DNA from: Escherichia phage Pu-Krd-SF3
Sequence record: PQ249397
Strand: one strand, 5' to 3'
DNA: 64,000 nucleotides
The notes under the pieces were generated by a model that saw nothing but the letters and a program-made list of their open reading frames with translations, was not told the origin of the DNA and made no database searches. This document shows, piece by piece, positions 4,971-6,769 of the stretch. How positions within the stretch are numbered: position 1 is the stretch's first letter; each line of letters starts with the position of its first letter. The translations under genes and the position numbers were made by a program.

Positions 4971-5579
4971 ATGAAAATGCAAAGTGATTTCAATTCAATG
5001 TTTGAAGAGTTCCAAAGACAGGTTGATGTTCCAGACCAATTATTAAATGCTCTTAAACGTATGGCAGAAGGACGTAATTATTATTGGGGTTCTTCATATG
5101 AAACTGATGAAAGTCTTTCTGGAAGATTTTCCAGAGGTAAAAAGTCTTTAATACGTCCTGGAATACTTATTAACAGTATTGAATCAATTTATTCATTGAC
5201 ATGTGATTTTGATGTTGAATTTACTGATTTCATTTCTCCTGAATGGACAGTATGTTATTTAAACGACGATTTTGATTATCTCGGTGTTTATAGTTTAAGT
5301 GACGCATGGTTTAAACGTAATTTACAAAAGTCAAATTTATTCTATATTGATACTACAGTAAAATTTCAGGGAAAGAAATATTTCTTTACTCTTATAGTTG
5401 ATTCTGAAACGAAGCATGAAAATAAACGTATTCTTAGTAAAAGAAATATCTTGAATATTGTTGATGATCTTTTTGATAAATTAGTGGAAAATCCTAATTT
5501 TGAAAGTGATTTATTACTAGAAAAATTTGTTAAGGAATGTAGAGAATATGTCAAAACCATCACTATACCTTCCAAGTAA
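4971..5579 (+). CDS. hypothetical protein (202 aa); C-terminus …KFVKECREYV
   Basis: ORF track; first of four consecutive genes sharing a C-terminal F(V/I)xECRK-like motif. Confidence 0.65.
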   Translation: MKMQSDFNSMFEEFQRQVDVPDQLLNALKRMAEGRNYYWGSSYETDESLSGRFSRGKKSLIRPGILINSIESIYSLTCDFDVEFTDFISPEWTVCYLNDDFDYLGVYSLSDAWFKRNLQKSNLFYIDTTVKFQGKKYFFTLIVDSETKHENKRILSKRNILNIVDDLFDKLVENPNFESDLLLEKFVKECREYVKTITIPSK

Positions 5580-5940
5580 ACCGTTGAAGTATGAATTAAA
5601 GCGTCAGATAATTTCTACTGATGTATTAATAGGTCCTGTTATACTTATATCATTTGTAATTCTATTGATTATTGGAGGTGTTTTAGATGTTATGACTGAT
5701 ATTGATTCTGGCGAAATACTTGTGTTAATGCTAATTCTTCCATTAATAGTTCCACTTTTATTAGTACCTGTAAACTGGATAGGATATTGGTATCAAGGAA
5801 GACATTATCGTAAACGTGTACGTGATTGGAAAGCACAGTGTAAAAAGATTAAAAAGGAACACCAGCTTAAACTTGCTGAGTATGAATTTAATGAAATTAT
5901 GAAATTTGTTAAGGAATCACGATGCAAAAGCCAAAACTAA
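5548..5940 (+). CDS. small membrane protein (130 aa, two predicted TM helices); C-terminus …KFVKESRCK
   Basis: ORF-track frame; ATG at 5548 preceded by aagga embedded in the upstream gene's C-terminal codons. Confidence 0.6.
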   Translation: MSKPSLYLPSKPLKYELKRQIISTDVLIGPVILISFVILLIIGGVLDVMTDIDSGEILVLMLILPLIVPLLLVPVNWIGYWYQGRHYRKRVRDWKAQCKKIKKEHQLKLAEYEFNEIMKFVKESRCKSQN

Positions 5941-6284
5941 ATAAAGTCAAATATTCGTTTTCTGAGTCATTTTTAATTTTTGCTGTGGCGTTGGCTGCAG
6001 CTCTTGCGGGTAGTCTTTTTGGATTGTTAATTGACTGTCTTATTTTAAACATTGACGGCACAGTAGATATAATAGAAGTTTGGAGTGAACTTCACTATAC
6101 CAAAATTATTTCATTGTTTTCATTTTTTGGTATTATATTATATTTTCATTATGATAATTTTAAAATAAATTGGCAAAGAAAAAAGGATTACAAAATACAA
6201 TTAAAAGAATATAATAGCTACATTTCTTATATTGAAAATGAAGCAATGAAAGAGTTTGTGAGTGATTGCAGGAAAATCAGATGA
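5922..6284 (+). CDS. small membrane protein (120 aa); C-terminus …KEFVSDCRKIR
   Basis: ORF track; hydrophobic N-terminal half, basic C-terminal half. Confidence 0.6.
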   Translation: MQKPKLNKVKYSFSESFLIFAVALAAALAGSLFGLLIDCLILNIDGTVDIIEVWSELHYTKIISLFSFFGIILYFHYDNFKINWQRKKDYKIQLKEYNSYISYIENEAMKEFVSDCRKIR

Positions 6285-6769
6285 TTTTAAAAACTCGCTG
6301 GTATGACTTAGACGATGGGGATGATGGCATTTCAGTTGATAGAGTTGACTGGAATGGTTGTTCTGAAGATACAAAGAAACGATTAATTAGGGAGTTTAGA
6401 ATGGGATATCAAGCAGCTAAGCCATTTACTGTAACAGATGATAAATTCGTGTGTATTCAAAATGGTCGCGCTAAGTTAACAAATGCTGATTGGTTCACAG
6501 ATAAGAAGGTTCTTCTGTGGTATATCATTAGTCTTCCTATATCATCGTTAGTATTTTACTTTTTTATAAAAAATCCAATGGACAGAATAGGAGATTGGGT
6601 TCTTTTAACTATACTTGTTAATATTTTTACAGCAGCAGTATTATCAGGAACATGGCGTATGTTCATTGAAATGCCATGGCGTTTACGCAGACAGCAAAAG
6701 ATTTATGATGAAAAGAAATATGCTCAAAATTTAAATAGCTTTATCACTGAATGCAGGAAATTAAAATGA
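6281..6769 (+). CDS. membrane protein (162 aa); C-terminus …NSFITECRKLK
   Basis: ORF-track frame; ATG at 6281 after aggaaaa; TM segments mid-protein. Confidence 0.6.
   Translation: MILKTRWYDLDDGDDGISVDRVDWNGCSEDTKKRLIREFRMGYQAAKPFTVTDDKFVCIQNGRAKLTNADWFTDKKVLLWYIISLPISSLVFYFFIKNPMDRIGDWVLLTILVNIFTAAVLSGTWRMFIEMPWRLRRQQKIYDEKKYAQNLNSFITECRKLK

Follow-up and report, generated by a model that had tools for sequence, protein, structure and literature searches.

The window, a 64,000-nucleotide stretch of DNA from Escherichia phage Pu-Krd-SF3 (record PQ249397), is Tequatrovirus DNA that matches Escherichia phage Pu-Krd-SF4 at 100% and T4 at 96%, and the part considered here carries the genes e.5, e.4, e.3, e.2 and then nudE (Table 1). 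The first four open reading frames are present as a sequence-only reading had described them, and the start of nudE is corrected from 6767 to 6766. Full-length family matches were obtained for e.4 (phrog_2604, E 1.1e-70, positions 1-130 of 130), e.3 (phrog_2330, E 2.3e-58) and e.2 (phrog_2203, E 1.1e-76); PF26873, the e.4 family, is carried by cluster representatives 90-94% identical to e.4, and the orthologues of e.3 bear that name in PP01, RB51, RB69 and VR7. Searching e.2 through e.5 against Pfam and NCBIfam gave no meaningful domain (the Pfam set was searched without the PF26873 model), and literature searches found no function for these four genes. The label "sulfurtransferase" that some NCBI records attach to homologues of e.3 and e.4 is unsupported and appears to be an annotation carry-over, with no sulfurtransferase or rhodanese match in Pfam or NCBIfam at E <= 0.1-1. 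Five genes with the N-terminus MK[TM]YxEF[LI]xE (internal-protein type) also lie in the window.

Table 1. Genes, junctions (J1-J4), variable segments and repeats of the e.5-nudE region, in window coordinates (SD, Shine-Dalgarno; TM, transmembrane).
Feature	Position	Strand	Description	Evidence
e.5	4971..5579	+	202 aa, soluble; tail ...LLLEKFVKECREYVKTITIPSK, motif 11 residues ahead of stop	phrog_2607, E 1e-108; hydropathy
e.4	5548..5940	+	130 aa; basic N-terminus, two-TM hairpin, long basic C-terminal helix; tail ...EIMKFVKESRCKSQN; 32-nt overlap with e.5	phrog_2604; PF26873 in cluster mates
e.3	5922..6284	+	120 aa; e.4 paralogue by profile comparison; tail ...EAMKEFVSDCRKIR; 19-nt overlap with e.4	
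e.2	6281..6769	+	162 aa; 75-aa N-terminal domain, two-TM hairpin, basic helix; tail ...NLNSFITECRKLK	phrog_2203; PF26896 in cluster mates; hydropathy; AlphaFold
nudE (e.1)	6766..7206	+	Nudix hydrolase; SD and start inside e.2 tail	PF00293, E 7.5e-14
J1	5526..5550	+	TTTGTTAAGGAATGTAGA (5526-5543) = FVKECR; AAGGA 5532-5536, 11 nt ahead of e.4 ATG 5548	
J2	5905..5924	+	TTTGTTAAGGAATCACGA (5905-5922) = FVKESR; AAGGA 5911-5915, 6 nt ahead of e.3 ATG 5922	
J3	6255..6284	+	TTTGTGAGTGATTGCAGG (6255-6272) = FVSDCR; codons FVSDCRKIR; AGGA 6270-6273, 7 nt ahead of ATG 6281; ATGA stop/start overlap e.3/e.2 at 6281-6284	
J4	6740..6769	+	TTTATCACTGAATGCAGG (6740-6757) = FITECR; codons FITECRKLK; AGGA 6755-6758, 7 nt ahead of ATG 6766; ATGA overlap e.2/nudE at 6766-6769	
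Hypervariable TM hairpin, e.4 residues 23-81	5614..5790	+	pi up to 0.21, dN/dS 0.69	
Hypervariable TM segment, e.3 residues 15-76	5964..6149	+	pi up to 0.18, dN/dS 0.42	
Hypervariable TM hairpin, e.2 residues 76-125	6506..6655	+	dN/dS 0.78	
Left copy of 12/13-nt repeat	6263..6275	+	TGATTGCAGGAAA; crossover removing e.2 falls inside	
Right copy of 12/13-nt repeat	6748..6760	+	TGAATGCAGGAAA	

A shared C-terminal motif and the relatedness of its carriers

The products of the four consecutive genes do share a C-terminal motif, as had been proposed, with the pattern hydrophobic-x-x-F-[IV]-x-[ED]-C-[RK]-[KE] in a peptide ~13 residues long; the e.4 version reads F[VI]KE[SIV]R and has no Cys at the motif position. 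The e.3 and e.2 proteins end at the strings originally quoted for them, whereas e.5 and e.4 continue for 10 (...ECREYVKTITIPSK) and 3 (...ESRCKSQN) further residues, because the next gene is overlapped by 32 and 19 nt, respectively. Six-frame translation of the whole 167.7-kb genome contains 3 matches to the strict form F[VI]x[DE]C[RK], namely the tails of e.5, e.3 and e.2, and a looser form brings in e.4. The form F[VIL]x[DE][CS]R has 7 matches across the six frames of the window, compared with 0.44 expected from shuffles, and among the 12 matches of the loose motif in the full genome only those in e.5, e.4, e.3 and e.2 lie within 12 codons of a stop (ORFs of at least 60 aa). A chance origin of the shared motif is excluded. 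A C-terminal degron or PDZ-type signal was considered and rejected, since the distance between motif and C-terminus varies from 1 to 11 residues among the tails.

The last three proteins had also been described as membrane proteins of like architecture, which hydropathy and AlphaFold models bear out. By hydropathy, e.4 and e.2 have two TM segments each, e.3 has one strong TM segment together with a shorter hydrophobic stretch, and no TM segment is seen in e.5. The AlphaFold models of e.4 (pLDDT 71) and e.2 (pLDDT 50, low-confidence and used for secondary-structure layout only) contain a helical hairpin whose second helix continues as a long C-terminal helix with the motif at its end, and for e.4, e.3 and e.2 we infer an N-in/C-in topology.

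Pairwise BLASTP of the four proteins gave a signal too weak for a decision on paralogy, and hhalign on single-genus alignments (Neff ~1.3) was uninformative, so that Mosig-, Gapriver- and Dhakavirus orthologues had to be added. Profile-profile comparison then aligns e.3 with e.4 at Prob 92% and E 7e-7 locally and at 90% globally (reversed control, 1%), and e.3 also matches phrog_2604, the e.4 family, over its full length with E 0.004. In both proteins a basic N-terminus of the form M-x-K-P-x-L is followed by a two-TM hairpin and then by a long basic helix. Judged by these profiles, e.3 and e.4 are tandem paralogues and the only demonstrable pair among the four, a relationship of use for annotation.

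That all four genes are diverged paralogues from serial duplication might be expected from the tandem order and common tail, from the e.3/e.4 relationship and from the similar arrangement of TM hairpin and basic helix in e.2. However, the match of e.2 to e.3 is confined to the last 14 residues (Prob 35%), its global Prob to e.3 or e.4 is at most 6%, and e.5, which has no TM segment, matches e.3 over 13 tail residues only. Since the matches of e.2 and e.5 are restricted to the tail (12-14 residues), there is no four-member paralogous family, and of the original suggestion of duplication through the junction sequence only the e.3/e.4 pair (Prob 92%) is retained. With a merged e.3+e.4 profile, an exhaustive HMM search over 1.84 billion representatives recovered just 8 of them, each either from a T4-type coliphage or a chimera of e genes, and no distant relatives; the e.2 segment was reached solely through an e.4::e.2 chimera, which also speaks against serial duplication. 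Scans of viral and metagenome loci gave 12 and 8 loci, respectively. We thus regard serial duplication of all four genes as quite unlikely, and e.5, by its hydropathy and profile, is an unrelated soluble protein that has the tail alone in common with the others.

Constraint on the tail at the protein and nucleotide levels

Because the genes overlap, each tail doubles as the ribosome-binding site of the next gene. At all four junctions the end of one gene overlaps the start of the next and the SD lies within the preceding ORF; as had been claimed, the motif codons there overlap the SD and start of the following gene, with a spacing of 6-11 nt; e.2 has an ATGA overlap on both sides, with e.3 and with nudE. 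Translational coupling across the overlaps is a candidate reading of this gene layout. Programmed frameshifting over the e.5/e.4 overlap is unsupported, the e.5::e.4 fusion in Shigella phage A2 being a 222-nt deletion. A stretch of 16 nt in J2 (AAATTTGTTAAGGAAT) is identical to J1, and the DNA homology of these two junctions extends to both sides of the start codon. Within Tequatrovirus, stretches of 30-45 nt at J1, J2 and J4 show no nucleotide variation (11-14 sequences), with diversity falling to zero at 5897-5926 around J2 (10 sequences), and J3 is less conserved than the other three. The invariance of J1, J2 and J4 means that some nucleotide-level constraint exists.

One way to account for this is a pure constraint on translation initiation, with the amino-acid motif a by-product of a fixed SD, spacer and start. 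An SD in every tail at 6-11 nt spacing, the ATGA overlap at two junctions, the lack of synonymous variation at J1, J2 and J4 within Tequatrovirus and the placement of the rare Arg codon AGG exactly where AGGA results are all compatible with this explanation. It is nevertheless very unlikely to be sufficient, as the SD falls on different motif residues, K-E (AAGGA) at J1, J2 and in Mosig- and Dhakavirus e.3 but R-K (AGGA) at J3 and J4, and in Dhaka- and Gaprivervirus e.5 it lies outside the motif altogether (AAAGRGG, downstream of an intact FIAECREY). Nor does any SD require F, I/V or C, and in comparisons between genera the residues Cys, Arg, Phe, Glu and Tyr are retained while their codons are exchanged for synonymous ones.

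The motif was looked for in relatives and is kept in the Mosigvirus, Gaprivervirus and Dhakavirus orthologues, surviving the synonymous codon changes and the shifting SD. The kept residues are F, I/V, E/D, C and R, encoded variously by ttt/ttc, gaa/gag, tgt/tgc and aga/cgt/cgc/cga/agg, and they persist in four genera while the remaining protein diverges to 20-50% identity. With a dN/dS of 0.13-0.17 at an ordinary dS of ~0.2, the tails are under purifying selection, and on these substitution patterns the motif is held at the protein level. The outcome that the sequence-only reading had named as telling against itself, unrelated protein bodies together with a motif missing from relatives, is not what we observe.

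The same data bear on neutral hitch-hiking, by which the tail would be no more than a 5' leader that travels with the downstream cassette during unequal crossovers or duplications and is translated in frame, with no protein function. The homology of J1 and J2 on both sides of the start codon, the tail on the unrelated body of e.5, which bounds the array on the left, and the gain and loss of cassettes exactly at junctions could each be explained in this manner. Retention of the motif across four genera with synonymous turnover, and the low dN/dS of the tails at normal dS, are not expected of a neutral leader, and we consider hitch-hiking improbable.

The recurrence of a ~20-nt sequence at successive gene boundaries might also point to a conserved RNA fold, or an RNA element with a regulatory role, across each junction, which had been offered together with translational coupling as the alternative to duplication. 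Neither folding nor Rfam supports such an element: 101-nt windows centred on J1-J4 gave fold z values of +0.80, +1.13, -0.02 and -0.38 relative to dinucleotide shuffles, a search of 4200-7400 against Rfam returned no match at E <= 1, and the between-genus variation falls at codon third positions and in no compensatory pairs. This explanation is hardly tenable. What remains of the earlier coupling or RNA-element proposal is the location of SD and start within the tail and the invariance of J1, J2 and J4; the RNA structure does not hold up, and the proposal leaves the motif unexplained. Scanning IMG/VR for exact matches to the pattern TTTRTTAAGGAATGYARR yielded 58 stretches; those outside e.3 and e.5 of T4-type coliphages are chance matches, either internal or non-coding, and the junction is therefore not widespread as an element.

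Probable cassette exchange at the junctions

In Tequatrovirus, three of the four junctions form invariant nucleotide islands amid hypervariable TM segments, with a pi of 0.000 at J2 vs. 0.13-0.21 in the TM segments. The gene e.2 is precisely absent in T2, RB32 and L013, with the crossover within TGA(T/A)TGCAGGAAA, a sequence common to both flanking junctions. Its body is present in 440 of 504 related records and absent in ~13% of relatives, and the contiguous T2-type junction lacking e.2 is seen in at least 45 records, a state that could derive from one event spread by recombination. In Dhakavirus e.4 is absent, and the junction there is a hybrid of Gaprivervirus J1 and J2. The allele classes of e.4-TM and e.3-TM are met with in every one of the four possible pairings, which indicates mosaicism, with crossovers that can be placed only to the ~200-nt conserved block of tail plus junction and not to the motif. 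Further deletions of this region that bypass the junctions (the Shigella phage A2 fusion, an e.4N::e.2C chimera in UFV05 and a TM deletion in P0194) mean that the junctions are preferred, not exclusive, sites. We also infer a direction for the e.2 and e.4 indels and the creation of the array by junction recombination.

The explanation we favor, with a probability of roughly 70%, is that a functional C-terminal helix end doubles as a translation-initiation region and a recombination linker. In the adjacent early genes e.5 to e.2, a ~13-residue tail, at the far end of what would be a cytoplasmic helix, is under protein-level selection, with e.2 placing the C-terminal architecture of e.4 and e.3 behind an extra N-terminal domain. 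Owing to the overlaps (ATGA or 19-32 nt), the tail codons also carry the SD and start region for the gene that follows, where either K-E as AAGGAA or R-K as AGGAAA can serve as SD, and this double use would freeze synonymous sites within the genus. The result is short, repeated, invariant DNA islands separating hypervariable TM-coding segments. Homologous recombination of T4 could then use the islands as linkers, by which a whole cassette would be cleanly lost or gained in frame with downstream initiation intact (e.2 in T2-type phages, e.4 in Dhakavirus) and TM-hairpin alleles would be reassorted among phages.

The four genes probably form a functional unit of a common tail and fast-evolving membrane hairpins, in which the tail would probably provide a common interaction surface. 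A more speculative version, which we find possible but rather doubtful, is that the tail is a docking or assembly helix that binds one common partner, or its fellow tails, at the inner membrane face. Its single hydrophobic face would consist of hydrophobic(-3), F, I/V and C, with the Cys invariant, and would be the binding surface of soluble e.5 and of membrane-bound e.4, e.3 and e.2 alike. If it were true, the hypervariable TM hairpins would be specificity determinants in phage-host or phage-phage conflict, and the array one whose coding linker keeps function, expression and exchangeability together.

Comparison with known systems

Stop-start translational coupling at ATGA occurs in compact phage and bacterial operons, and the e.3/e.2 and e.2/nudE overlaps resemble it, with the downstream SD among the final codons of the gene before it. 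Coupling of this type alone, however, predicts neither a conserved amino-acid motif nor its persistence when the SD moves.

The T-even internal-protein (IP) genes, which encode an N-terminal capsid-targeting sequence (Repoila et al., 1994, as related in PMC2839356), are in that account similar in that otherwise unrelated small proteins from a polymorphic T-even locus have a terminal peptide of ~10 residues in common, and the common ends go along with cassette replacement between phages. The IP sequence as described there is N-terminal with a known role (prohead targeting, then cleavage), whereas the tail of the e genes is C-terminal and doubles as the initiation region of the next gene. The "linker" model of Botstein and Campbell for modular phage evolution, formulated for lambdoid phages, likewise has, in the summary of PMC2839356, conserved flanks that secure the placement and expression of a module after recombination; in contrast to this general concept, the linker here is a dual-coding segment of 13-45 nt inside overlapping genes.

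A close parallel is found in the PeSL (promoter-early stem-loop) cassettes, through which T4-type phages shuffle their modules (Arbiol et al., 2010, PMC2839356; Comeau et al., 2014, PMC4122927). In both cases a hyperplastic region has small non-essential ORFs bounded by short conserved repeats that take in the SD and start of the gene behind them, and homologous recombination at these repeats excises, inserts or replaces ORF cassettes with neighbours undisturbed, which for the e genes is seen by comparison only, in the end-points of the e.2 and e.4 indels within junction repeats. PeSLs are intergenic and contain a sigma70-like promoter and a G/C stem-loop terminator or attenuator, none of which is found here: the e genes overlap and so leave no intergenic DNA, no junction has a promoter-like site (promoter-like matches in the region number 27 vs. 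18.7 +/- 4.1, no clear enrichment), and none has a terminator-like hairpin of the GGGG...CCCC type or folds better than shuffles. Unlike a PeSL, the e-gene linker is coding sequence with a conserved translation.

The array is thus a tidy variant of known phage gene shuffling and no new type of element. For the hyperplastic regions of T4 it widens the linker and PeSL idea, which concerned regulatory cassettes between genes, to include coding sequence, and it offers a sequence-level example of how a compact phage may keep accessory genes exchangeable: one short segment would have three uses, as a conserved protein tail, as the region where ribosomes bind for the following gene and as a patch of recombination homology, so that cassettes could be dropped, added or re-assorted with reading frames and expression intact.

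The gene block and its shared C-terminal tail

Over 4900-6800, identity is 100% with Escherichia phage Pu-Krd-SF4, 96% with T4 and 80-99% with 504 more Tequatrovirus-type records. Gene names were assigned by alignment to the T4 reference annotation, each backed by PHROG profiles; e.5, e.4, e.3 and e.2 have no informative match in Pfam or NCBIfam, and a literature search found no paper on their function. Many NCBI records name e.3/e.4 homologues "sulfurtransferase" and one "DNA primase", identities that no Pfam or NCBIfam model supports, so that the names look like propagated mis-annotation. 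T4 itself (NC_000866 67491-67960) annotates e.2 at only 102 aa, as do other records (P0192): relative to the window, an A-run there has a -1 change (ATAAAAAA to ATAAAAA), for which a +1 change ~75 nt further downstream compensates, and a stop codon lies between the two. Either the double frameshift is genuine or the old T4 sequence contains an error.

Features of the e-gene block, with related features elsewhere in the window and in other phages (CTS, capsid-targeting sequence of internal-protein genes)
Feature	Position	Strand	Basis or remark
e.6	4337-4930	+	T4 alignment, PHROG
e.5	4971-5579	+	T4 alignment, PHROG
e.4	5548-5940	+	T4 alignment, PHROG
e.3	5922-6284	+	T4 alignment, PHROG
e.2	6281-6769	+	T4 alignment, PHROG
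nudE/e.1	6766-7206	+	T4 alignment, PHROG; Nudix protein
e (lysozyme)	7243-7731	+	T4 alignment, PHROG
TM hairpin of e.4	5614-5790		
TM hairpin of e.3	5964-6149		
TM hairpin of e.2	6506-6655		
Five CTS-bearing genes	starts 2978, 7728, 8489, 8811, 53913	+	MK[TM]YxEF[LI]xE start
Tandem small ORFs in e.2 slot, Mosigvirus SHSML-52-1	L005 3231-4025		
Tandem small ORFs in e.2 slot, Gaprivervirus VR7	L006 2984-4243		
Tandem small ORFs in e.2 slot, Dhakavirus 005	L008 2851-3432		

The C-terminal motif described in the sequence-only reading is present in all four products (e.5 ...KFVKECREY..., e.4 ...KFVKESRCK..., e.3 ...KEFVSDCRKIR, e.2 ...SFITECRKLK), with the correction that overlaps of 32 and 19 nt with the following gene carry e.5 and e.4 on for 10 and 3 residues past these strings; at e.3/e.2 and e.2/nudE the overlap is ATGA. 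Each tail also contains an SD-like sequence for the following gene, as had been proposed, in the form of AAGGA or AGGA lying 11, 6, 7 and 7 nt from the next ATG at e.5/e.4 (J1), e.4/e.3 (J2), e.3/e.2 (J3) and e.2/nudE (J4). A six-frame scan of the window for F[VIL]x[DE][CS]R gives 7 matches vs. 0.44 expected. In the whole 167.7-kb genome, rebuilt from the public record, the stricter pattern F[VI]x[DE]C[RK] has exactly 3 matches, one each at the end of e.5, e.3 and e.2; of 12 loose matches, only those in the four e-genes fall no more than 12 codons before the stop of an ORF of realistic size. It is clear from these counts that the observation is real and far beyond chance. The sole true intergenic element of the e.6-nudE block is a GGGGC-UUCG-GCCCU tetraloop hairpin (4937-4953) in the 40-nt e.6/e.5 gap, just 5' of the e.5 SD (GGAG).

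Relatedness of the four proteins

Pairwise BLASTP among the four proteins is weak, and single-genus profiles were too shallow, so four-genus alignments were used for hhalign, drawing on tblastn orthologues at 20-50% identity from Mosigvirus (SHSML-52-1, RB69), Gaprivervirus (VR7, TH55) and Dhakavirus (vB_EcoM_005). The proposed paralogous family is borne out for e.4 and e.3, which match with Prob 92% and E 6.7e-7 over a 41-column cytoplasmic tail and with Prob 90% globally over 113 columns (reversed-sequence control, 1.2%); a second profile-profile run gave 91.5% and E 8.6e-7. The N-termini of the pair also correspond (MSKPSLYLPSKPLKY vs. MQKPKL-NKVKY), and e.3 gives a full-length match to the e.4 PHROG (E 0.004). 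The family reading does not extend to the bodies of e.2 and e.5, for which only the last 12-14 residues align with e.3 (Prob 35-37%, E ~4e-4) and hhalign aligns nothing outside the tail. The family is narrow: a merged e.3+e.4 HMM, run exhaustively against 1.84 billion representative proteins, returned only 8 hits, each either e.3/e.4 from a T4-type coliphage or a natural chimera involving these genes.

The similar membrane architecture proposed for the last three proteins is confirmed: hydropathy gives two TM segments each for e.2 and e.4, a strong and a short one for e.3, and none for e.5. Under the positive-inside rule, the basic N-termini and C-terminal tails suggest an N-in/C-in topology. 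In the AlphaFold models of e.4 (helix 24-49 and one long helix 54-129, pLDDT 71) and e.2 (helices 69-95 and 103-161, low confidence at pLDDT 50) the motif ends a long helix running on from TM2. Among Tequatroviruses, variability across the whole e.6-nudE interval peaks in the TM hairpins (pi up to 0.21, dN/dS 0.42-0.78; e.6, e.5 body and nudE, 0.04-0.12), which form discrete allele classes reassorted between phages.

Constraint on protein and nucleotide sequence

The tail is constrained both as protein and as nucleotide sequence, each at a different depth. Across genera, codons drift but residues are kept: orthologues retain the motif in e.5 (FVKECREY, FIMECREY, FIAECREY), e.4 (FVKESRC, FVKEIRC, FIKE[IV]RN) and e.3 (FVSDCRK, FIKECRK, FIKECKS), using Cys tgt/tgc, Arg aga/cgt/cgc/cga/agg, Phe ttt/ttc, Glu gaa/gag and Tyr tat/tac. 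The SD comes from K-E (AAGGA) at J1, J2 and in e.3 of Mosig-, Dhaka- and Gaprivervirus, from R-K (AGGA) in Tequatrovirus e.3 and e.2, and from a separate AAAGRGG downstream of the intact motif in Dhaka/Gapriver e.5, and thus cannot account for the conservation of F, I/V, E/D and C. Among Tequatrovirus sequences, dN/dS is 0.13-0.17 in the tails at an ordinary dS of ~0.2, compared with 0.42-0.78 in the TM segments.

The alternative reading, a translational-coupling or RNA element constraining the upstream C-terminus, leaves those four positions unexplained but agrees with the invariance of J1, J2 and J4, which show zero substitutions over 30-45 nt among 11-14 Tequatrovirus sequences; diversity is 0.000 in 5897-5926 vs. 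0.13-0.21 in the flanking TM-coding segments. Overlapping frames together with SD, spacer and start would impose such invariance. A conserved RNA structure is not indicated, as the folds of the four junction windows show no advantage over shuffled sequence (z = +0.80, +1.13, -0.02 and -0.38) and Rfam gives nothing at E <= 1.

Junctions as probable recombination sites and comparison with known systems

In T2, RB32 and an IMG/VR Tequatrovirus (L013) e.2 is absent exactly: alignment to the window stops at 6275 and restarts at 6748 with a 13-nt overlap. T2 reads ...GAGTTTGTGAGTGATTGCAGGAAATTAAAATGAAAACA, i.e., the e.3 tail up to TGCAGGAAA and then the e.2/nudE junction; the hybrid e.3 ends CRKLK, and the SD and ATGA overlap of nudE are retained. 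The e.2 body is present in 440/504 related records, and the contiguous T2-type junction in at least 45 records of diverse phages among the matches listed. Dhakavirus (005; JS98-type L015, L017, L019, L021, L028) passes from e.5 directly to e.3, and its junction (gaatacgctaaagaggttcgtaATGtataagcctagt) equals the upstream half of J1 plus the downstream half of J2 of Gaprivervirus (L007, L016, L018, L020, L029), where the order is e.5-e.4-e.3. All four combinations of e.4-TM and e.3-TM allele classes occur among 14 Tequatrovirus sequences, which means that crossovers occurred in the ~200-nt conserved block between these segments. The homology patches are short, measuring 12/13 nt (9 contiguous) for J3/J4 and 16/16 nt for J1/J2, and T4 recombination is reported to require <50 bp (PMC2839356). 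Some rearrangements avoid the junctions: an in-frame 245-aa e.5::e.4 fusion in Shigella phage A2 (L004 679-1416; deletion of 5340-5561), a chimera in vB_EcoM-UFV05 (P0098) in which the N-terminus of e.4 precedes the TM hairpin and tail of e.2, and a metagenomic in-frame e.4 lacking the TM hairpin (P0194).

Downstream content diverges between genera at the e.3 tail, being e.2, nudE or an unrelated tandem family. The last comprises 2-5 small soluble ORFs (65-101 aa), most of which end G-W-V-S/A-S-S-x-x-C-stop (two VR7 copies are looser), and most of which have TAAGGAAnnnnnATG of the next copy after them; it is a second, independent family with a conserved C-terminal motif adjoining the next SD, and the window has no copy of it. 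Polymorphism extends to the left boundary of the array: in VR7 (L006 1-2400) unrelated ORFs, one annotated as similar to cytidine/deoxycytidylate deaminase, replace e.6 and e.5, and e.4 is annotated as N-terminally shortened (88 aa).

The observation of a shared tail is thus confirmed and its earlier interpretation supported in part; the junction is best read as a coding, dual-use linker in a T4 hyperplastic region. The most likely explanation is that, within a single early gene block, a functional C-terminal helix end is common to one soluble and three membrane proteins, its codons doubling, through gene overlap, as the initiation region of the next gene. The repeated, frozen junction islands would then offer homology patches to the very active recombination of T4, so that cassettes could be lost or gained cleanly and the fast-evolving TM hairpins reassorted. 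The homology of J1 and J2 reaches both sides of the start codon, which fits an e.3/e.4 duplication with the upstream leader in the unit and would account for the tail on e.5, which lies at the array's left edge. The duplication origin of the array, the direction of the indels and any biochemical function of the tail are what we infer from these comparisons.

The nearest described systems are the promoter-early stem-loop (PeSL) cassettes of T4-type phages and the IP/CTS loci of T-even phages, both discussed in PMC2839356, in which conserved boundary sequences with SD and start likewise mediate cassette exchange. PeSL cassettes are defined by intergenic location, promoter and stem-loop, whereas the e-gene junctions have none of the three. 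Unlike the CTS, the e-gene peptide is C-terminal and its role is putative. The T-even IP CTS provides a known case of a short terminal peptide common to otherwise unrelated proteins.
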